Of a stretch of DNA of 63,198 bases, positions 4,296-61,101 are shown one piece after another; the stretch's first letter is position 1, and every line of letters begins with the position of its first letter. The DNA is taken from positions 1-63,198 of the IMG/VR virus record IMGVR_UViG_3300045929_000106. One strand, given 5' to 3'. Both the position numbers and the translations under genes were made by a program. The notes beneath the pieces were generated by a model that was not told the DNA's origin, made no database searches, and was given only the letters and a program-made list of their open reading frames with translations. Source of the DNA: a virus (Duplodnaviria > Caudoviricetes).

Positions 4296-5137
4296 AACAA
4301 ATCCCTATCCAGATCGAGGGCTTCACGTTCGATTCGACGCCCGACACCAAGCCCGCCGTCTGCGTTTACGGCGAGGAGAACACCGGCAAGACCCGGTTCG
4401 GCTGCACGGTCCCGCACGATAGCGGCGTGGTGGGCTGGCTGGCCCTCGACAAGAACTCCAAGGGCACGGTGGAGCAGTACCAGGAGCGGAACGGGGACCG
4501 GCGCATCCTGGTCAACCAGAAGCCGTTCCTGTCCAACAAGGACGCCATCAAGCTCGCCATGACGGAGAAGCCCGCCGAAACCAAGCTGTTGGCGAAGGCC
4601 GTCGTAGAGAAGGTCTGGGACCACGCCATGAAGCTCGCGGACCACAAGGACGTGGAGTCCATCGTGATCGATGACGGGTCGCAGTTGTTCGACTGGATTC
4701 TGTTCTCGCATTTCGGCAGGCGCAACCAGATCGAGAGCTACCAGCGGGGCGGGCCTAACAACGACTTCATCGAGCTGATTACGGCGCTCGGCAGCAAGAA
4801 CCTCTGCATGATCTGCCGGGGCACGGAGGTCTGGGCAGACACCGGCGAGGTGGACGCGCAGGGCCGCAAGAAGCAGGCCCCCACCGGCAAGCTCAAGCCG
4901 GAGGGGTTCGGGAAGCTGGGCAAGTTCATGACGGCGGTGGTGGAGCTGTCTGCTACCCGCAAGAAACCGGCGGAGGACGCCACCGCCGAGGAGGCGCTGG
5001 CCGCCAAGTACAAGTGCAAGGTGATGACGTGTAAAGGCGACACGCTGCTGGAGGGCCAGGATCTGACTCCGTTCGGCGTCTGCGGGGCGGAGATCACCTG
5101 GGACAACGTGATGACCGTTATAAGAGCCAAGGACTAG
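4292..5137 (+). CDS. AAA_24/Sak4-like NTP-binding recombination protein
   Basis: VYGEENTGKT Walker A and SIVIDD Walker B; lies next to the exonuclease. Confidence 0.75.
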   Translation: MKQIPIQIEGFTFDSTPDTKPAVCVYGEENTGKTRFGCTVPHDSGVVGWLALDKNSKGTVEQYQERNGDRRILVNQKPFLSNKDAIKLAMTEKPAETKLLAKAVVEKVWDHAMKLADHKDVESIVIDDGSQLFDWILFSHFGRRNQIESYQRGGPNNDFIELITALGSKNLCMICRGTEVWADTGEVDAQGRKKQAPTGKLKPEGFGKLGKFMTAVVELSATRKKPAEDATAEEALAAKYKCKVMTCKGDTLLEGQDLTPFGVCGAEITWDNVMTVIRAKD

Positions 5138-5139
5138 TT

Positions 5140-5310
5140 ATGCATTCCTATATCGTGCGTTTGCGGCGAGTGATGGAATGGGAACAAGTGTACGAAGCAG
5201 ACTCCCCAGAAACCGCCATAGAACTGGCCAAGCTGGAGGCCCACCACGGGACCGTCGTAGATGAGCTGGCGAGCGTGGAGGAGGTCCAGCCAGCCGAGGT
5301 AGTCGATTGA
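5140..5310 (+). CDS. Hypothetical protein (56 aa)
   Basis: Hand-read ORF MHSYIVRLRR...; fills the gap with coupled start/stop. Confidence 0.55.
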   Translation: MHSYIVRLRRVMEWEQVYEADSPETAIELAKLEAHHGTVVDELASVEEVQPAEVVD

Positions 5311-7524: not shown

Positions 7525-7888
7525 GGAACGGGAGGACCGGGCGCAGTTCGCCTCGCTGCCGCCGGTAGTGGAGCTGGAGGACGTGAAGGTTCGCCAGCGG
7601 GTGGTGGCGCTGCTGGAGCTGCTCGATCAGGCGGTGGCCGAGCGCCAGAAGCTGGAGCAGGACGAGGAGAAGTACAAGGTGGAGCTTGGCACTCTCCAGG
7701 AGGCCACCAACCGGCAGGGGTTCCGCTACGGCCTGCTGTGCTTCATGTCGCAGCCGGTGAAGGGCAGACGGACCCTGGACAAGATGCTGCTAATCGAAAA
7801 CGGCTGTCCAGCGGACGCCATTAACCTCTCCTACAAAGAGGGGAAGCCCAGCATCCGGCGCACCTTCAAGCGGCTGGGGGACGAATGA
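7511..7888 (+). CDS. Hypothetical coiled-coil protein
   Basis: ORF with RBS, coupled to its neighbours. Confidence 0.6.
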   Translation: MNNFEEREDRAQFASLPPVVELEDVKVRQRVVALLELLDQAVAERQKLEQDEEKYKVELGTLQEATNRQGFRYGLLCFMSQPVKGRRTLDKMLLIENGCPADAINLSYKEGKPSIRRTFKRLGDE

Positions 7889-8085
7889 ACGAGCCGCCCC
7901 GCAAGGACCCGATGGCCATCCTCTGGGTGGCCGCCAACCGCAGCGCCCTGACCGAGGTCGCCAAGCAGTGCGGCTGCTCGGTGCAATTTGTGAGCTATGT
8001 GTTATACGGGCGTAAACGGTCTGGGGACGGAAAGGTGGAGCGCCTGCTCAGAGAGTTAGGGGCCCCAATTAAATCAACAAGGTGA
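7885..8085 (+). CDS. Small HTH DNA-binding protein
   Basis: LTEVAKQCGCSVQFVSYVLYGRKRS HTH pattern; GTGA-coupled to the RAMP-like gene. Confidence 0.7.
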   Translation: MNEPPRKDPMAILWVAANRSALTEVAKQCGCSVQFVSYVLYGRKRSGDGKVERLLRELGAPIKSTR

Positions 8086-8699
8086 ATCACATGGACACAT
8101 TACAAGCATTAGAGCCAGTCTCCAATGACGCGGCGGCGATTATTGATATATCGCAGCCTTATGCGGTTGCCTGCAGAGTTGTTGGCACTTGCCCAATTCT
8201 ATTTCATCGCTGGTCCGTGGAAAGCGTGGAAGCCAAGGGAAGGGCTGCCAAAGGGTCAGCGGCCAAGAAGACGGATGACGTTGACTCGTATGTCTATCGA
8301 ATGCCCTCCGGCGAACTGGCCATTCCATCGGAAAATCTGCGCATGTCGGTAATCAACGCGGCAAAGTACCGGCAAGACCCCAGATCTCCACGTAAATCTG
8401 CAATGGATCTGTTCAAGGCGGCCATTGCATGTTTTGAGCCGTATTGCGGACTGGGCGTGAGTAAATGGGAATACATTGATCAGCGGCGAGTAACGGTGCA
8501 GCGCGCCGGAGTAACCCGCCGCCGCCCCGCCCTGGCTGAAGGCTGGTCCGTGGAAGTTATATTCCAGATCCTGTTGCCGGAATATATTTCTCCAACTATG
8601 CTCAACGAGACAATACAGTCAGCCGGAAAACTGATTGGGGTATGTGACTTTAGGCCATCATATGGAAGGTATCAGGTAACAGAATTCCGAGTAGTATAG
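8082..8699 (+). CDS. Stand-alone Cas7/RAMP-like RNA-binding protein
   Basis: First strand VVGTCPILFH, helix motif AIPSENLRMSVINAAK (cf. RAMP IPGSSLKGxxR), C-terminal Gly-rich loop AGKLIGVCDFRPSYGRYQV; 205 aa. Confidence 0.7.
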   Translation: MNHMDTLQALEPVSNDAAAIIDISQPYAVACRVVGTCPILFHRWSVESVEAKGRAAKGSAAKKTDDVDSYVYRMPSGELAIPSENLRMSVINAAKYRQDPRSPRKSAMDLFKAAIACFEPYCGLGVSKWEYIDQRRVTVQRAGVTRRRPALAEGWSVEVIFQILLPEYISPTMLNETIQSAGKLIGVCDFRPSYGRYQVTEFRVV

Positions 8700-8901
8700 G
8701 GCGCGGCCTGCCGGGGCGTGGTTCGGCAGGGCGGGGTATGGCATGGCGTGGCAAGGCGAGGCATGGCAAGATGTGGCGTGGCAAGCCAAGATCTGGCGCG
8801 GTCTGATCGGGCGCGGCGGGGCTTTGGCGAGGCCCGGTTGGGCACGGCGTGGACGGGCGAGGCAAGGTTTGGCCTGGGTGGGGCAAGGCAAGGCATGGAT
8901 A
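8700..8901 (+). ncRNA. (GGY-NN)n pentamer array, putative guide RNA for the adjacent RAMP-like protein
   Basis: 40 pentamers starting at the first base after the stop codon; 33 begin GGC or GGT; last two bases variable; single-base register shifts at 8825 and 8876. The repeat is certain, the RNA role is inferred. Confidence 0.7.
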
Positions 8902-8973
8902 CCTTATTAAGGTTTAACTTAAACTGCCACGCCCGGTTTCTTTTTTTCGGGGCGGGTGGCTCACCGGATGAGC
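8901..8973 (+). other. Stacked inverted repeats after the array (RNA 3' handle or terminator)
   Basis: ACCTTA-T-TAAGGT (8901-8913), GTTTAA-C-TTAAAC (8912-8924), GCCAC/GCCC...GGGC/GTGGC around a T-rich loop (8926-8960), GCTCA-5-TGAGC (8959-8973). Confidence 0.5.
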
Positions 8974-8986
8974 CAGTGGAAAATTC

Positions 8987-9166
8987 ATGACGATCTTCAG
9001 TGTCAGGAAAAACAAAACGAGGTTCCCGGGCGTGGCCGAGGACATGCCGGATCACGTGCTGGTGTTCGGCCCCAAGGAGCAGGCCGAGCTGGTGGCCGAG
9101 CGGTTGTCCGCGCACTACGAAGGCTGCGGCGGGATCTTCTACGTGGTGAAGGAGGACCGGCCATGA
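8987..9166 (+). CDS. Hypothetical protein (59 aa)
   Basis: Hand-read MTIFSVRKNK...; ATGA overlap. Confidence 0.5.
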   Translation: MTIFSVRKNKTRFPGVAEDMPDHVLVFGPKEQAELVAERLSAHYEGCGGIFYVVKEDRP

Positions 9167-9399
9167 CGGACAACGATCTGCGCAGGTATGTGGGCGCGGC
9201 GGCGACGGAGGCCGCCCCCGAGCTGGACGCCATCACGGAGAAATCGATTCGGAAGTACGGTCTCGACTCGATGGACGGCGAGTGGCTGGTGCGGGTGGGG
9301 TTCGCCCTGAATGACGTGCAGATCGCCAGCTTCTATCTGGGGGTCACGGCGGCCAGCAGGCTGCTGATGACCCTGGCGGAAGCCGAGGAGCCCCGGTGA
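9163..9399 (+). CDS. Hypothetical protein
   Basis: ATG 9163 after AAGGAGG. Confidence 0.6.
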   Translation: MTDNDLRRYVGAAATEAAPELDAITEKSIRKYGLDSMDGEWLVRVGFALNDVQIASFYLGVTAASRLLMTLAEAEEPR

Positions 9400-9566
9400 G
9401 TCCCGAGAAGGAGAAGCTGCTCCTGGACGCGATGTGGGGCCTCTTCACCACTCTGGAGTACGTGGTGGGAGAGTTCACGGACGGAATGGGCAGGCTCGCG
9501 GGCCCGGTGAAGCAGAAGCTGGACGATCTCAAGAGCGCCCTGACGGAGCTGGAGACCATGGAGTGA
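9396..9566 (+). CDS. Hypothetical protein (56 aa)
   Basis: GTG start after GAGGAG; GTGA overlap. Confidence 0.55.
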   Translation: MSPEKEKLLLDAMWGLFTTLEYVVGEFTDGMGRLAGPVKQKLDDLKSALTELETME

Positions 9567-14605: not shown

Positions 14606-16339
14606 TTACTTCACCAGTGTCAGTCTCTGGGCCAGGAGCGCCCGGTCCTGCGCCACGGACTCCGGCTCCCAGCCGAGCGCGTACACCTCGTCCATCTCTG
14701 CGCCGGTTGAGAAGTGCTCGTGGCGCACGCGGGCCCGCTCGCACCAGACGTACTTCCCCAAGGCTTTGGCCCGCTCCGTCAGCTCGTTGTCGCAGCCCAC
14801 ATGCCGGTAGCCCAGGTGGAAGAACTCCCCGCCGATGTATGGGAGTAGCTTCTTCCCCGCCAGCCAGTGGGTCGCAACCACGCCGTGCCACTGCCCGTCG
14901 TTGAGCGCCACCAGCCCATCGAGCTGCGGGAAGGACTCCAGCATCTGCAGCACGGCGACGATCAGGAAGCCCTCCTCCGGCACGCAGTCGTTGCCCAGAA
15001 ACATCACCAGCTCACCCGTGGACTCCTCCACCCCTTCCTTGAGCAGGCGCGGGACGCCCTGGCGCTCGATGAAACTGTCGCGCTTCACGATCACCTCGTA
15101 GTCCGGGTAGTTGGCGTGCGCCTCGATGGCGGCGAGCAGCCGCTCCAGCTTCTCCTGGCGGCCCAGCGTGGGGACAATGATCGAGACTCGTGGCAGGTTG
15201 ATATAAAACCGGGCATCGTGCAGGATTTTTTTGGCGGCGGGCTGGAAAGCCAGGGCCTTGCGCCAGTGGAACGCCGAGCCCTCGCGGTCCCCGAGCCACC
15301 ACTTGGCCCAGTAGAGCAGCTCGTGGGGCAGCTCGCGGTAGTGCTCCATGTGGTTCGCATAGAAGTCGGACCACGGGATCTCCAGGGCGGCGGCGGCATA
15401 GCAGGCGGTGCGCTGGCGGTCCCCCTTCTTCCACCAGTGCTGGGCCAGACGCAGCAGCGCCTCCCGGCGTCCGGGGTCCAGGGCGAACGCCGCGTGCCAC
15501 TGTTCGACGGCGCGGTCCTCCTCCTCGATTGCGAGCCAAGCGTCCCCGATAAAAATCATGGACTGGGCTCGCTCGGTGAGCCACCGGTTCATGGCGATGT
15601 GCCGCGTCAGCTCCTTGATGGCGGCGCGCGGGCGGCCTGACCACAGCAGCTCCCGCCCCAGGTAGTGGCTGTTGCGGTCATTGTCCGGGTTGAGCCAGCA
15701 GTCGTAGGCAAGCCCCGCCAGATAGCGGGCCCGGTGGTCCTGCGGCTGCTGCCAATGTTCCAGCCGGATCGCGTCCGTGTAGAAGCGCTCGGCCTCGCCC
15801 TGCAGCACCTCGTGAACTACGCCTGCCCAGTGGAGCTTGCGCCGGTCATAGAACTTGCAGTGCCGGAACTGGATCTCCGGTCTGCCCTCCGCGTCATGCG
15901 AAAACACAAACTGGTATTCCAGTTGGGTGTAGCCGTCTGCGATGATGCGCTCTACCGTATCGAGGTCCAGCACAGTGTAAGCCTCGTCGCAGTCGGGCAT
16001 CGCCACCATGTCGTTGCTCGCGAGAGACGCGGCGTAGTTGCGCGCGGCGCAGTAGTCGAACAGGCGGCTGCCGCCCTTGACCACCGGTTGCTCGCCCGCG
16101 CCGAAGAACCGGTTGATGTTGATCGCCATGGCGCCGGTGATCGTGGTCAGGAAGCGCTCGCCAACCCCGTAGGCTGTGCAGCCAAGCTTGCGGGCGACCA
16201 GTATCGTGTCATCGGTGGACCCGGTGTCGACCAGGACGATCTCGCCCCCGCGCCGCTGGAACTCCGCGAGGGATTCCACCAAGCGTGGCAGGGTCTTGGC
16301 CTCGTTGCGAGCTATCAATACCACGCTGAAGCTAACCAT
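14606..16339 (-). CDS. Glycosyltransferase: GT2-TPR-GT2
   Basis: SVVLIARNEAKTL...VDTGSTDDT, DxD (DCD), central TPR-like helices, second GT-A domain SIIVPTLGR...LGNDC. Confidence 0.85.
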   Translation of the reverse strand: MVSFSVVLIARNEAKTLPRLVESLAEFQRRGGEIVLVDTGSTDDTILVARKLGCTAYGVGERFLTTITGAMAININRFFGAGEQPVVKGGSRLFDYCAARNYAASLASNDMVAMPDCDEAYTVLDLDTVERIIADGYTQLEYQFVFSHDAEGRPEIQFRHCKFYDRRKLHWAGVVHEVLQGEAERFYTDAIRLEHWQQPQDHRARYLAGLAYDCWLNPDNDRNSHYLGRELLWSGRPRAAIKELTRHIAMNRWLTERAQSMIFIGDAWLAIEEEDRAVEQWHAAFALDPGRREALLRLAQHWWKKGDRQRTACYAAAALEIPWSDFYANHMEHYRELPHELLYWAKWWLGDREGSAFHWRKALAFQPAAKKILHDARFYINLPRVSIIVPTLGRQEKLERLLAAIEAHANYPDYEVIVKRDSFIERQGVPRLLKEGVEESTGELVMFLGNDCVPEEGFLIVAVLQMLESFPQLDGLVALNDGQWHGVVATHWLAGKKLLPYIGGEFFHLGYRHVGCDNELTERAKALGKYVWCERARVRHEHFSTGAEMDEVYALGWEPESVAQDRALLAQRLTLVK

Positions 16340-19290: not shown

Positions 19291-19697
19291 TGGATCTTGA
19301 CCATCAGGGAAGTCCAGGCCGCCACCTGCACCTGATTCAGCTCCTGGGCCGTGAGCTTCTTGTTGAAGATCAGCCGGATGTCGCCTGGGCCGTTAGGGAA
19401 TGCGCGGACGCTGATGTTGTGCTGCGCCAGCGCGGCGTTAAAGTCATCCTCGAAAACGCAGGGGTCGCGGAAGTCGTAGATCGAGTTTGTGCTGGGCGGG
19501 ATCTGGCCTACGTTCTCGTCAGCCATGATGGCGTCCAGGGTGGCCTTCTGGGGCGGGGTGATATCCGGCTCAAACTCGATGCCGATGCCGGTGACCCCGT
19601 CGCTCGCCAGTCCCATGGGAGCCGGGAGCCCCGCATCCACCATCTTGCTGGCCATCACGCCCAGGCTGCCGGAGCGGTATGGATATTGGTATCTCAT
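19287..19697 (-). CDS. Hypothetical tail-module protein
   Basis: Coupled ORF between a fibre gene and the GT gene. Confidence 0.55.
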
Positions 19698-21475
19698 GTC
19701 TTGGTCACCTTCAGCATCAGGGCGGCGCGGGTCACCGTCGCCACCGAGTCCACGTTGAAGCGCAGGCAGTCTCCGGCGGTGATCGTGGTTGTCCAGCCGG
19801 TCAGGGTGGAGGAGCTGTTGTTGGTGGCGCTGGACACCGTGGGCTTGGCGCTGGCGGTAATGGTGTCCGCAACCGTGGGCGGGTAGTTGGCCAGGGTGTC
19901 CTTCCAGATGTCGAACACAATGGAGCCCGAGGTGTCACAGAGGATCGTCCACTGGTTGATCGTGCAGCCGAAGTCCACCCGGATATCGGCCTTCACGCCG
20001 GTGGTCAGCGCCGAGCCGCCGCCGTCCAGCACGATAGTGATATCCGCGATGTTGGTGTTGGTGACGGTCCCCGCGCCCGTGTAACCTGTATACCCGGTAG
20101 GCCCGGTAGCGCCAGCCCCGGCGGGCCCGGTGTAACCGGTTGGCCCCGTGGGGCCGGTGACATTGGAGGCTGGCCCCGTATAACCAGTAGGGCCGGTAGG
20201 GCCAGCTCCCCCAGCCGTTCCCGCCGTTCCCTGTGGTCCGGTGTAACCAGTCGGGCCCGTGGAGCCTTGCGAGCCGTTGGAGCCCGCCGGTCCCGTGTAA
20301 CCCGTGGGGCCGGTGAAGTTCCCCGGCCCTGTGTAGCCAGTGAAGCCGGTGTAACCGGTTGGCCCGGTAAACCCGGTAGGCCCGGTAGACCCCACCGAGC
20401 CAGCGGAGATCGTGGTCTGGATATGCGACCCGTGCGTGGCCCCCTGTAGATACATCGTCACCGTGATCGTGCCGGGGCCGGAGACGCGCTGAGCATAGAT
20501 CTTGTTGACGATGCGGTCAGTCGAAGACATCGCGCCGCCGCCCGAGGGCGTGGCGATCCACTCCTGCAACGCGACGGCGACATTCGTGAACGGCTCGCTG
20601 TACTCGTCGCGCACCAGGGTTTCCACCCCCGCGCCAGTGCGCGCGTAGACCAGCAGGTGTATCCGCGCCGCGCCGCTGGACGTGGACGCATAGACGCGCC
20701 GGAAGGCCGTGCCCGCCGGGTAGTCCACTGCGCCGGGGACGCCGGGATCGGTGGCGAACTCATCGATCAGGACATCGCTCGTGCCGGAGCAGGACACGGG
20801 TATGGTTGTCTCCGCGAGCGCGGACGGGGACTCCAGCATCCGCTTGTAGCCGGTGATATCGCTGGAAGTGTTCTCATAATAGAAGATGCGGCCCGCCGAG
20901 ATGCCCTCTTCACCTTGCGGGCCTGTATAGCCGGTGGGCCCGGTTTCACCTGCGGGCCCCGTATAACCGGTGGGACCCGTGGAGCCTTGCGAACCTGCGG
21001 AACCTGCCGTCCCCTGCGGACCCGTGTAACCAGTAGGGCCTGTGTAACCAGTGGGCCCTTGCGAGCCCGCGTCTCCGGCGGAACCCGCTGGACCCGTATA
21101 GCCGGTTGGACCCGTGTAGCCGGTTGGGCCTTGCGGACCAGCTCCCCCCGCATCCCCTGCGATTCCCTGCGGCCCGGTATAACCAGTGGGTCCGGTTGCT
21201 CCCGCCGGTCCCGCAGCCCCTGTGTAACCCGTGTAACCAGTGGGACCCGTCGCGCCAGCGGAACCCGAGGGACCCGTGGGGCCTGTGGGGCCAGTGCTCC
21301 CAGCTCCGCCCCCAGGCATGTCCACCCAGGCTCCGGTCCCGTCCATGACCTTGCCGGGATCGTTGGGCAGAGGCTCATCCGGGGCCAGGACATAATCCCC
21401 GGTTCCGGTGATGCCGAGACAGTCGTTGAGTCCGCGTGGCATACTGCGTCCTTGGGAAAGATTACGTAAGCTCAA
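19694..21475 (-). CDS. Collagen-like tail fibre protein
   Basis: Two long (G-P-T/G-Y-T)n triplet tracts flanking a globular domain; C-terminal beta domain. Confidence 0.8.
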
Positions 21476-22034
21476 ACCACTTCTGGAGCGTCTGAGATCC
21501 CCCGTCCCATGCCACCTTGTAATACTGCCCCGGAAGGACCCATGTCTGCACCGTCCTCGTCTGGGAACTGGCTGGCGCGTGTTCTGCCGCCGCTATGGTT
21601 GTGGGGGGATTAAATGCGTCGGTATAAAAGCAGAGGGTTCCTGAGACGCTTGCGTAGCCATAGACCTGAACCAGCTTTGCGACGGCCCCGGTATTCTGGT
21701 AAACCGTGTCGAAGGCGCGAGAGGCGGTAACATCACTCCGGGTAGTGATCCCCGGAGCCGTCCACTTGATTCCCCTGGCTTGTGCCGAATCCGCCGCCAG
21801 CACCTGACCGTCTGACCCTGCCGGAACGCGAGCATCTACCGTCGAGTAGCCCCAGAGGTCGCCCTTGGTGGTAAGTGGGGAGGACGATCCGCCAACAGGA
21901 GTAACATCATCCCAGGTCGCGCCGTTGTCGTACCAGATCTCGCCGGTGTCCGTGGCGAAGAACAGCCGCCCCTCGATGCTCGCCGCTGGGCGGTTGGCGA
22001 ACGTGTCCTTGAGAATCACATTGGCTAGGGTCAA
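21462..22034 (-). CDS. Tail fibre-associated protein
   Basis: [27 protein letters not shown] and LTTKGDL...[11 protein letters not shown] fibre motifs. Confidence 0.7.
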
Positions 22035-22816
22035 TTGGGAACTCCTACTACGGTTACAACATCACCGCCCGCAAAGATAAAGTTATTGTTTCCGTCCGTC
22101 AGGGACTCGTCATGCACGTCGGGGGTCCCGCCGCCTCCGCCTGCTGGCCCTGTGTAGCCGGTGTAGCCGGTTGGCCCGGTTGGTCCGGTGGCCCCCGCCA
22201 CCCCGTCGCCACCGTCCGCGCCTGCTGGGCCGGTGTATCCAGTGGGGCCAGTCGAGCCGAGACCCGTATAGCCCGTATAACCGGTGGGGCCGGTTGCCCC
22301 CGTATAACCTACGGGGCCGGTGAAACCAGTGAAGCCCGTGGGGCCCGTGTAGCCTGTCGGGCCGGTAGCGCCATCGGGGCCCGTGTAGCCGGTGGGGCCG
22401 GTGGGGCCGCCCGATTCTCCCCCCGGCCCTGTCGGACCCGTGGGGCCGGTTGGACCGGCGGATGGCCCGGTGGGGCCGGTGGGTCCTGCTGGGCCCGTAG
22501 GGCCGGTAGCGCCCCCGCCGCCCCCGCCGCCGGTGGCGTTGATGACGATCCTGACCCGCTCGTTGTTGACATCGTTGTTGTCCGCGCCAGCGATGGCGAC
22601 GTTGGTTCCCGAGATGAACTCCAGCTTGGAGCGGGTCCCCACCTCCGAGCCGTCGACCTGAACCTCCAGCGCCCGGTGGTCGAGCTGATCGTCCACCTCC
22701 AGCAGCTTGTCGCGGAGATCGTAGACCAACTGGTAGAGGCGGCGGATCGCGGTCTTCAGCGCCTCCGGCAGCGGCAGGGACTCCAGGTTCGGGATGTGGC
22801 GCGGGAGGGCGGCCAT
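22031..22816 (-). CDS. Collagen-like protein
   Basis: (GPT/GYT)n tract after an N-terminal coiled coil. Confidence 0.8.
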
Positions 22817-24637
22817 CTAGCCTGGACCTCCCCGGTTGGGAACCGGACAAGAGTCGACATTCCCGCCGCCTCCGCCCCCGCCCCCGCCGCCACCCCCACC
22901 ACCCTCGCTGGGCATATTCATCCCAACACCTGACAGGGAGCCCGAGATAGAGCCGGAAGCGTCTTGCTTGAGTATCCCGGCCAACACTCCTTCCAGGCCG
23001 GGGAGTGTCGAAGCCAGCCCGCCATAGATATCAGCGGCAGTGCCCACAAGCATGCCGCCCAATCCTGGCAGCGGCGACATGGCAGACATGTCTCCGGCGA
23101 CATCGACTGGAGGGGGCGCTCCCATGGCGTCGATGTACTGCATCCGCAGGGAGTGGTACTTGGTGGACGGCGGGGTGGTTGGCGCGTTGGCGGTGTAGCT
23201 GGCCAGGAGGGACACCTGCCCCGTGCCGGAGCCGGAGACTCCATAAGACAGCACGTCTTCAGCGGCGAACGTGGTCCCGCTGATATCGATGGTGTAGATC
23301 GTGCCCGCCCCGGCCCCGGCGAGAACGGTAGTGGAGCCCTTGATGACGCCGTTCACCTTGAAGTCGATGGTCAGGTTGCTGCTCAAGGGCGTGACCACCG
23401 TGGCGGTGACCGTGGTCCCGGTTCCGGGGTAATAGGCGCTGGCCGCGTTGTTGGGCGTGATCGAGGGGACCCCGCCCGAGAACGTGACGTTGGAGTACCA
23501 CTTCTGCGGGAAGCTGGTGGGCGTCCCCATCACCCCCAGCGGCTGCGCTATCAGAGCGGTCATGATGCCGAAGCGCGTGTCCGACAGGGCTATCGTGTAG
23601 GGGCTCAGGATGCCCGAGGAGCCCATCGGCTCCCAGATGACCGTGGGGACGCTCCAGCCGCCGCTGGCCGAGGTGGTGTGCGTCTCGTACAGGTAGGAAT
23701 GGATGTTAGGGTCCGTCCCTATATAGGCCGAGAAGATACAGAAGAGCGTGTCCCCCTGCGCCACGCAGGAGCAGGGGAAGTAGTAACCAGTGACGTAGAC
23801 AGCGGCCTCGTTACCGAGCGTCATCCCCGTGAGACTGCTGGTGTCCACCGTCTCATCGGTCCAGGTGGGGCTGGCCGCAAACGTCCCGCGCGCGATGCGC
23901 AGCAGCTTGTCCGTGGGATGCACCACCGGAACAACCACCTGATTCTGAGCGCCGAAGATTGCGGGCTGGCCCAGCCAGGACTGACGGCTGGTCAGGAATG
24001 AGCCCGTATACCGTGTCGAGGGGCCGGTCACCGTGCTGGGCTTCTCGATAGTGAAGCTGCGCACCGCCGAGCCGTTGACCGTGAAGAGGTGGGCGCGGTC
24101 TGTGGATGGCTCGCGGATCGCCCAGCCGAGCTGCTCGTTGGTGGTTACGACAATGTAGGGCGTTCCCCACGAGCCCACCCCGGTGTAGTTGGTGGCCCGC
24201 AGCCGGGAGCTGGCGTTATAGATCGCCAGCATGGAGTTGTCCTGCCATACCACCAGCGAACCGGCGTCCCCGAAAGAGATGGAGGAGTAGTCGTTAGTAA
24301 GGAAGTCTTCCGTGGTTGTGTCGTAGCGATACATCCCCAGCACCGATGGAGAGAAGGTGGTTTCTCCCATGAGGATGTAGATGGTGGACCCTACCACGGC
24401 AAAGCCGGGATGATAATCCGCGAGATCGGTGTTGTTCTCCAGGCGAGTCCAGGTCCCGCCGTTGTCCGCGCTCTTCCAGATGCACATGGCGCGGGTGGCC
24501 TCCACCGAGCCCACCTGCGCGGGGCAGAGAAAGTACAGGTTGGAGCCTATCTTCTGCAGGGAATTGGCGGAGGACTTGCTGGACTCGAAATACTCAGGGT
24601 CTGGCGGCGGCGTCGTCAGCGTAAACGTGTAAGCCAC
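22817..24637 (-). CDS. Asp-box/BNR beta-propeller tail protein
   Basis: KSADNGGTW Asp-box; poly-Gly plus Cys C-terminus. Confidence 0.6.
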   Translation of the reverse strand: MAYTFTLTTPPPDPEYFESSKSSANSLQKIGSNLYFLCPAQVGSVEATRAMCIWKSADNGGTWTRLENNTDLADYHPGFAVVGSTIYILMGETTFSPSVLGMYRYDTTTEDFLTNDYSSISFGDAGSLVVWQDNSMLAIYNASSRLRATNYTGVGSWGTPYIVVTTNEQLGWAIREPSTDRAHLFTVNGSAVRSFTIEKPSTVTGPSTRYTGSFLTSRQSWLGQPAIFGAQNQVVVPVVHPTDKLLRIARGTFAASPTWTDETVDTSSLTGMTLGNEAAVYVTGYYFPCSCVAQGDTLFCIFSAYIGTDPNIHSYLYETHTTSASGGWSVPTVIWEPMGSSGILSPYTIALSDTRFGIMTALIAQPLGVMGTPTSFPQKWYSNVTFSGGVPSITPNNAASAYYPGTGTTVTATVVTPLSSNLTIDFKVNGVIKGSTTVLAGAGAGTIYTIDISGTTFAAEDVLSYGVSGSGTGQVSLLASYTANAPTTPPSTKYHSLRMQYIDAMGAPPPVDVAGDMSAMSPLPGLGGMLVGTAADIYGGLASTLPGLEGVLAGILKQDASGSISGSLSGVGMNMPSEGGGGGGGGGGGGGGNVDSCPVPNRGGPG

Positions 24638-24957
24638 TATGCCTCCCTAATATAGATTCCTATCAGCCCCAGCGCTCCATACTCGCTGTCGATGATCTCC
24701 CGGCGCTTGAACTCCGCCGCCAGGAACCGGCCCCAGGTTTCCTTGGGCGCGCATGGCAGAACGTCCGTCCTGGCGAGGGACGCCAGTTTCTCCAGCAGAA
24801 GAGCCTTGGCTTCCTCCAGCGTGGGAGCGGTAACGTCCACGTCGCACACCGTGTAGCCGTTCTCGTCATGCAAGGTGTGCGCAATGCGAAACTGGGAGCG
24901 CTTCCGCCTGGACAGCTCCGCATACACCCGGTCCAGAAACTCCTGAGTCTGCTCCAT
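24637..24957 (-). CDS. Hypothetical protein (possible fibre chaperone)
   Basis: Coupled ORF between the two Asp-box genes. Confidence 0.55.
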   Translation of the reverse strand: MEQTQEFLDRVYAELSRRKRSQFRIAHTLHDENGYTVCDVDVTAPTLEEAKALLLEKLASLARTDVLPCAPKETWGRFLAAEFKRREIIDSEYGALGLIGIYIREA

Positions 24958-26642
24958 CAGCCCGCGCCTCCTGTGCGCCCCTGCGGACAGTCAACAGTTC
25001 CCCCACCGCCGCCCCCGCCACCGCCTCCCACATTGCCGGAGCCCATCAGGAGCCCACCGGCGAAAGAACTGCCAATGACGCCAACCGCAGCCGAAGATAT
25101 CGAGCCAATCATGGACATACCGAGCCCCGGCAGCCCGCCAGCAAGGTTCCCCTCTTCGATTGCGGCGTTGCCGGTAAACACGCCAGAAAGACCGGGAAGC
25201 GCGCCGTCGATAGTCCCTTCAGGCGCAGCAACGCTCAGCTCAAACTGAATCTCTCCAAATGACGCGACAAATAGCGACTCAAATCCATTGGTAGGGGTAT
25301 AGTTTCCAGTGGGCGAAAGCCAGAGGTCATCGACGGTAGACCATGATCCCGGCGCTCCATGAAACCACCGGAAATGGCCCTGCAGATGAGGATCGTCTTC
25401 TGCCCCGGCGTCCCAACGGTCCTCAGTCCAACAGACCAACACTGTAAGCTCGCCCGTATGAATCGGGTTAAACCTGTAATACTGAGTAACCTTGTTGTAG
25501 TTTTCCTGATCCGCCGATGATCCATACACCCCATGGCAGTTGTATGAGATAGAAAGGAACACCCCCATCCACCACCACATGCCCAGCGACACAAGCTCAA
25601 AGTCTTCCCCGGTCTGCAAAACATCGCCAGTCCAGGAAGCTGGAGTCAGGGAAGCTTCTGCGGTAAATGCGCGGATATCGGTATAAACTATGACCCTTCC
25701 GTCGTCATCCGTTCTCCCAAGACTGTCGCTATAGCATAAAGCCGCGCACGCAACCCTCTCACCGGACGGCGTCGGATACACAGTAATATTAGAGACGTAT
25801 CCGACCTGATACCGCATATAAAGATCAGAATTGATAATGGACTTGGACCCGAATACCCCACTGGAGTCCATGCCCATGTGCCACATCTCGTCGCGGTTAG
25901 TCCCGGTGACATCCGGCCCGTTCATCAATAGAAAATGAGAATTGCCAGCCGTGTCGCAGGCAACATGAGCGGGCCAATAAGTGACGGGACCGGCGGTCTG
26001 GCCGGGAATGGCAACCGCCGCGCCAAACACTTCCCCATCGAACGTGGCGTAATAGGAGCGCCCATATTGCTTGCTGTCGGTATGGGTGTAGCGCGTGCCG
26101 GAAAAGAAGAAAACCATGTCTCCGGGGCCGCGCGTGGCAAGACTCATCGCGACTTCGCGGCTCTGAAGTTCGGCTGCAAGAGTGCCCCTGACCAACGCAT
26201 CAACCGGGACGGAAGAATCCACGATCTCAGCTCCCCAGGTGTCCGTGTTCATATCCCAGGGAGCAACAGCTACCCCGTGATAAGTGTGCGTCGTATAGTC
26301 GAAATTATGAACGTAGATTAGATAGGCCGTGTCTCTATCCACTCCCACGCAATAAGCGACTCCAAATGAGGGAACCGAGTCGATGGGAAGCTCGCTGCCC
26401 TCCACAAATGACCAAGTGGTTCCCATGTCTGTGCTCTTGAAGACGCGCAGCTTCTCGTCTCCGGCGCTGCCAGGAACCTCGATAGGGGAGCCGCCTGGAT
26501 TGTTGATCTCAAACTCGGTTGTGATACCGTCTAAATTATAAAGAAAGGCGTATAGGTGGTTATAGTGACGGACTACAAACCTCTCCTTACACGAGTTGGA
26601 CCCTACATCATATTGCCCGATGATGGAGAGCGTGTCCGACAT
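24957..26642 (-). CDS. Asp-box/BNR beta-propeller tail protein
   Basis: KSTDMGTTW Asp-box; C-terminus paralogous to 22817-24637. Confidence 0.6.
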   Translation of the reverse strand: MSDTLSIIGQYDVGSNSCKERFVVRHYNHLYAFLYNLDGITTEFEINNPGGSPIEVPGSAGDEKLRVFKSTDMGTTWSFVEGSELPIDSVPSFGVAYCVGVDRDTAYLIYVHNFDYTTHTYHGVAVAPWDMNTDTWGAEIVDSSVPVDALVRGTLAAELQSREVAMSLATRGPGDMVFFFSGTRYTHTDSKQYGRSYYATFDGEVFGAAVAIPGQTAGPVTYWPAHVACDTAGNSHFLLMNGPDVTGTNRDEMWHMGMDSSGVFGSKSIINSDLYMRYQVGYVSNITVYPTPSGERVACAALCYSDSLGRTDDDGRVIVYTDIRAFTAEASLTPASWTGDVLQTGEDFELVSLGMWWWMGVFLSISYNCHGVYGSSADQENYNKVTQYYRFNPIHTGELTVLVCWTEDRWDAGAEDDPHLQGHFRWFHGAPGSWSTVDDLWLSPTGNYTPTNGFESLFVASFGEIQFELSVAAPEGTIDGALPGLSGVFTGNAAIEEGNLAGGLPGLGMSMIGSISSAAVGVIGSSFAGGLLMGSGNVGGGGGGGGGGTVDCPQGRTGGAG

Positions 26643-60749: not shown

Positions 60750-61007
60750 CTACCTTCCCCCGTTCAGGAACCTCTCAAACTCCCGCGCAAACTCAGTCAG
60801 TGTGATCCCGAGGGCCGTCACGATCTTGTACACCGTCTCCAGGGTAGGCGAGTGCTGGCCCCTCTCCAGATCGGACATGTAGGCCCTGTCCAAGCCCGCC
60901 GCGTGCGCCAGCTTCTCCTGCGACAGGTTCCGGTCCCACCGGAGCTTGCGCAGCGCCCTGGTGAACGCCCGCCGGAGTGCGGGTTTGGAGGGAAGCTTCT
61001 TCGACAT
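60750..61007 (-). CDS. XRE-family HTH repressor
   Basis: LRKLRWDRNLSQEKLAHAAGLDRAYMSDLERGQHSPTLETVYKIVTALG. Confidence 0.9.
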   Translation of the reverse strand: MSKKLPSKPALRRAFTRALRKLRWDRNLSQEKLAHAAGLDRAYMSDLERGQHSPTLETVYKIVTALGITLTEFAREFERFLNGGR

Positions 61008-61101
61008 GGAAGGCCCCCTTAGTCTATACGCCGGTTGTGAAAAACCCCACAAGGTTTACCCCGTCGGCGGATGTGCCACATTTTTCGACTAGCTAATTAC
61101 T

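Follow-up and report, generated by a model that had tools for sequence, protein, structure and literature searches.

What is the role of a run of 40 pentamers of the form GGY-NN found directly behind a small gene in the genome of a soil phage? The run occupies positions 8700-8901 of the plus strand of virus record IMGVR_UViG_3300045929_000106, whose whole stretch of 63,198 nucleotides (nt) was analysed and is called here the window. We consider it very probable that the phage carries a VIPR system at this locus, formed by a gene for the protein Vipr and by a guide array. A preliminary description of the same sequence had assembled the variable NN dinucleotides into one string and proposed to read them against a target as NNx-NNx, with the skipped base at codon wobble positions. 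The string is letter for letter the one obtained by scripted extraction, and the proposed decoding is right: it is the 1-nt-skip rule already published for VIPR. The parts of the locus are the following:

8082 to 8699, plus strand: vipr gene, predicted to encode a minimal Cas7-like RAMP of 205 amino acids from the GTG at 8082
8700 to 8824, plus strand: phase block 1 of the putative vrRNA array, 25 GGY-NN units
8826 to 8875, plus strand: phase block 2 of the putative vrRNA array, 10 units; an extra T at 8825 shifts the phase by +1
8877 to 8901, plus strand: phase block 3 of the putative vrRNA array, 5 units; an extra G at 8876 shifts the phase by +1

The array starts one base past the stop codon of the gene. 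The GGY triplet is intact in 33 of the 40 units (27 GGC and 6 GGT), and units 4 to 14 of block 1 form 11 perfect GGY units without a break. The seven degenerate units are GCCGG, GATGT, GCCAA, GATCT, GATCG, GGACG and GGATA, the last being the final unit of block 3. The NN positions use 15 of the 16 dinucleotides. No second GGY-NN array is found on either strand of the whole window. The predicted fold of the array RNA shows no structure beyond that of shuffled sequences (z -0.70), which fits the expectation for a protein-coated guide. Contigs from other soil runs carry an identical array, with no differences listed. The three phase blocks are most likely separate or staggered guides.

VIPR was first described in 2026 as a CRISPR-like DNA silencer of phages (bioRxiv 10.64898/2026.04.26.720920). 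In the available parts of that preprint, the system consists of Vipr, a minimal RAMP of ~20 kDa, and of vrRNAs made of YNNGG repeats. Pairing to double-stranded DNA is through the NN dinucleotides and leaves out one base of the target in each unit, for the most part the codon wobble base. Its natural targets are given there as competing phages, satellites and prophage lysis-lysogeny regulators, called at a match of at least 80% of the NN bases, and no self-targeting is reported at that threshold. The same parts distinguish seven types, describe some arrays as 'staggered', with vrRNAs offset by 1 nt (legend of fig. S18), call internal degeneracy of arrays frequent and mention stand-alone vipr genes (10.64898/2026.04.26.720920). 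Structures of the Vipr of Escherichia phage SUSP1, as outlined in the accessible text of a second preprint, place one protomer on each repeat, with H17, R138, D177, W178 and R179 holding G1, G2 and Y3 (10.64898/2026.04.26.720927). A third, likewise available in part, covers target calling with shuffled nulls and decoy-type solo vrRNAs of satellites (10.64898/2026.10.15.759431).

Sequence profiles and a structural model indicate that the window protein is Vipr, with a Cas7-like RAMP fold. An identical database protein starts at the ATG at 8091 and has 202 residues. The product of 8082-8699 matches no Pfam family, and its only PHROG hit is phrog_4652 (E 1.4e-15), whose function is unannotated. 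A profile built from 74 family members (alignment A1) matches the PDB chain 36pp_D, 'SUSP1 Vipr protein', with E 1.5e-17, aligning 173 profile positions (33-205) to residues 5-190 of the 202 of the chain; the lone window sequence reaches E 7.1e-4. In the pairwise alignment of this sequence with the chain, H42, R148, D189, F190 and R191 of the window protein face SUSP1 H17, R138, D177, W178 and R179. R148, D189 and R191 are at least 90% conserved among the 74 members, and the family conserves a C-terminal G-loop motif G-x-x-D-F-R-P-x-Y-G-R. The AlphaFold2 (AF2) model computed from the alignment has pLDDT 94.6 and pTM 0.86; it replaced an earlier single-sequence model with pLDDT 30. Foldseek compared it with a PDB copy holding entries to April 2026 and returned 119 matches at E<=0.001, of which the best are Cas7-type RAMPs, namely type VII Cas7, Csm3 and Cas7-11 (probability 1.0, TM ~0.5; for example 8z4j_J, E 1.2e-6, TM 0.53).

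The association of the gene with GGY arrays is a property of its family. Nine contigs of IMG/VR encode Vipr relatives with 50-59% identity. Eight of them have 5-nt periodic GGY tracts directly beside the gene, and the contig of the ninth holds just 315 nt of downstream sequence; long in-phase arrays of IMG/VR relatives run to 45-69 units. The bare motif, six GGCNN followed by GGC, occurs in at least 138 stretches of IMG/VR, and a Vipr relative is encoded within 1.5 kb in 31 of the 138 motif loci listed. In the species genomes of GTDB, a scan with the single window protein found no relative, and a scan with a second alignment (A2) yielded 73 loci with relatives of 43-59% identity. The labels of the metagenome-assembled genomes (MAGs) bearing these loci include Acidobacteriota, Phycisphaerales and other Planctomycetota, Bacillota, Patescibacteria, Nitrospira and one Bathyarchaeia archaeon, besides others. 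Since the best GTDB relative, in an Acidobacteriota MAG, is just 57% identical, no host is claimed for the phage. Same-strand arrays of at least six in-phase GGY units lie within 1.5 kb of the gene at 71 of the 73 loci, and at all 62 loci that have at least 300 nt on both flanks. They are positioned only upstream at 19 loci, only downstream at 16 and on both sides at 36; arrays on the opposite strand are seen at only 2. The density of array blocks follows the gene, with 160 blocks in the 190.6 kb near it versus 11 in the 253.3 kb farther out. The family is large, with 5348 proteins of near-matching length as candidates at E<=1e-3 (1056 clusters at 50% identity), and the 120 family proteins listed are all unnamed or 'hypothetical'.

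Some members of the family have features of their own. Very long arrays are found within 1.5 kb of vipr relatives at GTDB loci L296, L308 and L279. An Acidimicrobiales MAG has 135 GGY units downstream, a Bathyarchaeia archaeon MAG has 102, and a Dormiibacterota MAG has 94 on the opposite strand. In Phage DSL-LC04 (OR003939.1, 22435-23034), a vipr homologue with 54.5% identity is annotated as 'helix-turn-helix transcriptional regulator', a label that is probably wrong or stems from a merged call.

These data bear also on readings in which the repeat would not be a guide, being a coding pentapeptide-type repeat, a G-quadruplex or other structural DNA, or the binding array of a different protein. 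Several open reading frames (ORFs) do cross the region on both strands, and a GG every 5 nt could form two-tetrad quadruplexes. However, the unit is tied across phyla to one protein family, on the strand of its gene, this family is that of the solved Vipr, and the NN positions are near-maximally diverse while GGY is fixed. We regard such readings as extremely unlikely.

Does the 1-nt-skip rule apply to the guides of relatives in the same clade? We collected 486 distinct guide blocks, cut them into all their windows of 8 units, with 16 informative bases each, and looked for exact gapped matches at skips 0-3 in the collected loci. Hits of the window's own guides, loci fished with them, matches of arrays to arrays and low-complexity guides were removed. 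Among the remaining guide-target registers of complex sequence, 17 have skip 1, against 2 with skip 0, 1 with skip 2 and 8 with skip 3, the last being homologous arrays that match one another. The matches at skips 0 and 2 do not extend past the 8-unit seed, whereas several of those at skip 1 do. L274 has a guide of 19 units immediately 5' of vipr. At L253, L272 and L275 this guide finds 15 of 16 units in a row inside a gene for a DUF3799 PDDEXK-like nuclease, in frame and with the skip at the wobble position. The 23-unit guides of L247 and L250 share a 12-unit run with one half-mismatch, in frame, with a ResIII/DEAD helicase gene in L241. In the same helicase gene, at ten loci, 8 units of the 9-unit guide of L251 match antisense; going by the frame offsets, the skip would here fall on codon position 2. 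The excess at skip 1 supports, short of proving, the 1-nt-skip rule in this clade, and with it the wobble-skip reading of the preliminary description.

In each of the convincing guide-target pairs, the match stops short of the end of the guide block and leaves its final 1-3 units unmatched. The guide at L274:3893-3987 matches 16 of 19 units in register and that at L251:1366-1410 matches 8 of 9, while in those at L247:1352-1466 and in L250 the final 2 find no counterpart. The pattern is a hint that the units nearest the 3' end serve as a handle rather than as guide. Loci L240-L255, prophage-like and from Phycisphaerales MAGs, display at ~4630-5200 the order vipr, short array, small gene, second array and helicase gene. 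The second array ends in a conserved GC-rich tail with a GNRA-type hairpin, and the helicase gene is itself a target of the guides of sister loci.

What would the guides of the window recognise? The preliminary description pointed to the repressor or cro gene of a related phage, with a helix-turn-helix (HTH) product, and took as a lead a match of units 18-26 to the repressor-like gene of the window itself, which under this proposal marks the homologous site. The features concerned are:

60750 to 61052, minus strand: XRE-type HTH repressor-like gene (phrog_3, E 5.3e-11)
60888 to 60914, minus strand: site matched to units 18-26, a match at chance level and not part of the system

The in-frame match of 7 of 9 dinucleotides is real, covers 15 of 18 bases and lies in the XRE-type gene, but it does not exceed chance. 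Comparing the 32 nine-unit windows of the array with both strands of the window gives matches of at least 7/9 once at skip 1, never at skip 0 and once at skip 2; 100 shuffles of the NN order give on average 0.43 such hits, with at least one in 30 of the 100. The match moreover crosses the phase break at the extra T (8825), between units 25 and 26, and so joins two blocks. Given one protomer per pentamer and the legend on staggered arrays, this junction is probably a boundary between guides. Seeded searches beyond the window, described below, gave 76 hits (65 in IMG/VR and 11 in JGI contigs), none of which continues as a match within an HTH gene, and none of the searches led to such a gene. For the relatives, too, the natural targets identified encode a nuclease and a helicase and no regulator. 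The decoded units 1-8, A-L-G-V-S-(S/R)-G-(I/M), would be compatible with many HTH recognition helices. We judge a repressor or cro target unlikely, and the proposal should not be carried forward as stated.

The search for other targets covered the window, viral and metagenomic contigs and sampled host genomes. In the window, blocks and half-blocks were compared at skips 0-3 with 200 shuffles each, and just the array itself (at skip 3) rose above the null; the best scores at skip 1 were 27/50 for block 1 (null 27.4 +/- 1.0) and 14/20 for block 2 (null 14.1 +/- 0.6). Exact NNx seeds hit 65 loci in IMG/VR, namely 2 with units 1-8, 54 with units 9-16, 4 with units 17-24 and 5 with units 26-33, and the seed of units 5-13 hit 11 loci in JGI metagenome contigs; exact seeds can pass over block 1 targets with at least three mismatched units. 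None of the JGI hits was extended (23-30/50), and the whole-block scores of all seed hits except one were those of chance (19-30/50). For the 10-unit and 5-unit blocks only a perfect match would be significant in collections of this size, and for block 2 even a score of 18/20, as in L210, is by our estimate expected by chance. Ten whole related phage contigs (469 kb), scanned at skips 0-2, held nothing above shuffled guides. Allowing up to three mismatches, units 1-12 had no match in 401 Acidobacteriota genomes and units 13-25 none in 251, these sets being samples of the phylum that would miss a target in a host clade outside them. The genomes behind L239, L240, L253, L284 and L291 likewise gave 0 matches.

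The exception among the seed hits is L148, an IMG/VR contig of 6.5 kb in which block 1 scores 33/50, with units 1-8 exact and 6 of units 17-25 matching. The site is in frame, with the skip at the wobble position, in a tape-measure gene (phrog_3336, 'tail length tape measure protein', E 1.6e-77). It raises the idea that the tape-measure gene of some rival is what block 1 targets, in which case L148 would be a diverged relative of the true target. Past the seed, L148 matches 17 of 34 bases, whereas the 57 other seed hits scored alongside reach at most 13 of 34. Yet the 66% match lies under the 80% criterion used in the preprint, and we estimate by a rough binomial (~0.004 per hit) that ~0.3 such extensions would arise by chance among the 76 seed hits. 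Shuffled guides reach 33/50 in the local set of 0.45 Mb (null maximum 33), the 14 further tape-measure loci homologous to L148 score 23-26/50, and block 2 has no match with up to three mismatches in the L148 record, nor in that of L149. We therefore rate a tape-measure target as quite unlikely. With a similarly low probability, the long in-phase arrays could be continuous copies of contiguous stretches of 75-200 bp of a rival's gene rather than series of short independent guides; in that case block 1 would correspond to a single piece of ~75 bp from a gene resembling that of a tape-measure protein.

The array could also be a worn or repurposed relic that guides nothing or serves as a decoy or sponge for the Vipr of a rival. 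Consistent with this are the seven units without GGY, the two single-base phase shifts and the lack of a target in the searches above, and decoy-type solo vrRNAs are known for satellites according to the available parts of 10.64898/2026.10.15.759431. Against it, the vipr ORF is intact, has its key residues conserved and abuts the array, and the array is the same in contigs of other soil runs. The arrays of relatives are similarly degenerate, and both degeneracy and 1-nt staggering are noted in the accessible parts of the first preprint (10.64898/2026.04.26.720920). We hold decay or diversion of the array to be very unlikely and favour an active VIPR locus.

Hints of transcription come from assemblies of soil libraries. 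The stretch 7800-9400 is present in 16 soil runs from 16 studies, of which nine are possible sources of the virus record and four were compared (X13, X14, X15 and X16). A run from an RNA library (X16) contains a single contig of 201 nt spanning 8716-8916, the array alone, and another (X14) has contigs over 7835-8727 and 9211-9400. These contigs are a weak hint of transcription. In DNA runs, the contigs stop at the edges of the array: coverage by X13 breaks off at 8625 and returns at 8877, and that by X15 starts at 8821. Such breaks suggest that short-read assemblers tend to break at vrRNA arrays, which may thus be under-represented in metagenome assemblies.

On its two sides the pair of gene and array is bordered by the following features:

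7885 to 8085, plus strand: ORF of 66 amino acids, a candidate accessory gene with a weak HTH signal, whose stop codon overlaps the GTG at 8082
8902 to 8976, plus strand: 3' flank of the array with three hairpins, a possible 3' tail or transcript end

The 66-residue ORF product has a Pfam hit to HTH_31 (E 3.3e-4) with 21.3 bits, under the cut-off of 27 bits, and one to phrog_5736 (E 1e-3); the ORF may be co-transcribed with vipr. None of the five proteins around the array matches a PADLOC family at E<=0.01, the best hit being mad1 (E 0.019) for the 66-residue product. The 3' flank comprises a small hairpin, CCTTATTAAGG, at 8902-8912, a GC-rich hairpin at 8927-8959 and a third up to ~8976. Its fold is no better than that of shuffled sequences (z -0.88), and no terminator-like site of canonical type was found 3' of the array. 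The arrays of relatives often have varied GC-rich hairpins directly 3'. Small unannotated ORFs follow downstream from 8987.

The rest of the window contains phage genes, including those for portal, major head, tail fibre, Sak4-like and ERCC4-like proteins. No Rfam family at gathering score and no tRNA were detected in the 63 kb. A glycosyltransferase of 577 residues (14606-16339, minus strand; Glycos_transf_2, E 2.1e-18; phrog_13126, E 1.4e-52) is encoded amid large unannotated genes of the minus strand. Runs of CCN/GGN triplets at 22860-22907 and 24997-25032 match perfectly low-complexity pseudo-guides of other loci. They lie inside two minus-strand ORFs without PHROG match, 22817-24637 and 24957-26642 respectively, and the adjoining minus-strand genes 19694-21475 and 22031-22816 match collagen-like tail-fibre families.

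Among the known systems, the closest comparison is type II VIPR, that of Escherichia phage SUSP1 and of a Pseudomonas fulva prophage. As in that type, the window has a phage-borne, stand-alone RAMP of ~200 residues, an adjacent same-strand array of GGY-NN pentamers and conserved residues for the contact to GGY, and the guides of its clade relatives match natural DNA at a skip of 1 nt. Unlike type II, the Vipr of the window is distant in sequence (the E 7.1e-4 given above) and no conserved vap1-like neighbour was found at the locus. The 'staggered vrRNA arrays' named in the legend of fig. S18 correspond in this respect to the window, whose array changes phase by +1 in just this way at 8825 and 8876. 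The closest structural matches of the modelled Vipr are the backbone proteins of class 1 CRISPR (Cas7/Csm3 and type VII Cas7). According to the accessible text of 10.64898/2026.04.26.720927, these backbones form a helical filament that coats RNA and whose thumb periodically breaks the duplex of guide and target. In contrast to class 1 CRISPR, there is no repeat-spacer array in the window and no other cas gene among the five proteins tested, and the guide has a period of 5 nt with 2 pairing bases where that of class 1 has 6 nt with 5 pairing bases.

Several observations weigh against assigning a VIPR system to the locus. SUSP1 W178, one of the residues that hold the GGY, is replaced by F190 in the window protein, although an aromatic residue is kept. 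Counted as independent events, the 17 registers at skip 1 amount to about three that are convincing and three that are marginal, and 10 of the 17 come from one guide. The guides of the window itself have a target above the null at no skip, in seeded or sampled searches. The RNA-library contigs fall short of proving transcription, since neither their ends nor their strand are visible and RNA libraries can contain DNA. Ten neighbour genes of the window have no homologue at the loci of 82 relatives, and no conserved accessory (vap) gene was found. Set against type II, the window has blocks of 25, 10 and 5 abutting units, not separate vrRNAs of ~100 nt with 9-16 repeats, GGY is degenerate in seven of its 40 units, and no conserved tail or pseudoknot is recognisable. 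Abutting blocks with 1-nt offsets and a plain 3' fold argue against type II, not against VIPR. On the other side stand the homology to a solved Vipr, the fold, the residues in contact with GGY, the linkage of gene and array and the use of the 1-nt skip by relatives, all shown by the present analysis. That the array is processed, loaded and active, we infer.

By analogy with SUSP1, the system might operate as follows. The array of 200 nt directly behind vipr would be transcribed into vrRNA. One Vipr protomer would bind each pentamer, sequestering GGY and presenting the two N bases. The filament would then pair with double-stranded DNA, reading it as NNxNNx with every third target base skipped, and would silence transcription. 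The likely victim would be a competing phage, a prophage or a satellite.

The VIPR decoding rule was thus recovered by a reader from the raw sequence alone. With this assignment, the protein of a soil phage joins a very large and taxonomically broad clade of Vipr proteins, whose guides provide independent computational support for the 1-nt-skip code far from the systems of E. coli and Pseudomonas in which it was established. The comparison of these guides also puts replication and recombination genes of related prophages among the natural targets. Should the long arrays prove to be continuous copies of a rival's gene, they would imply that guides are written by templating from target DNA, a primitive acquisition step that is not in the preprints, as far as their available parts go.

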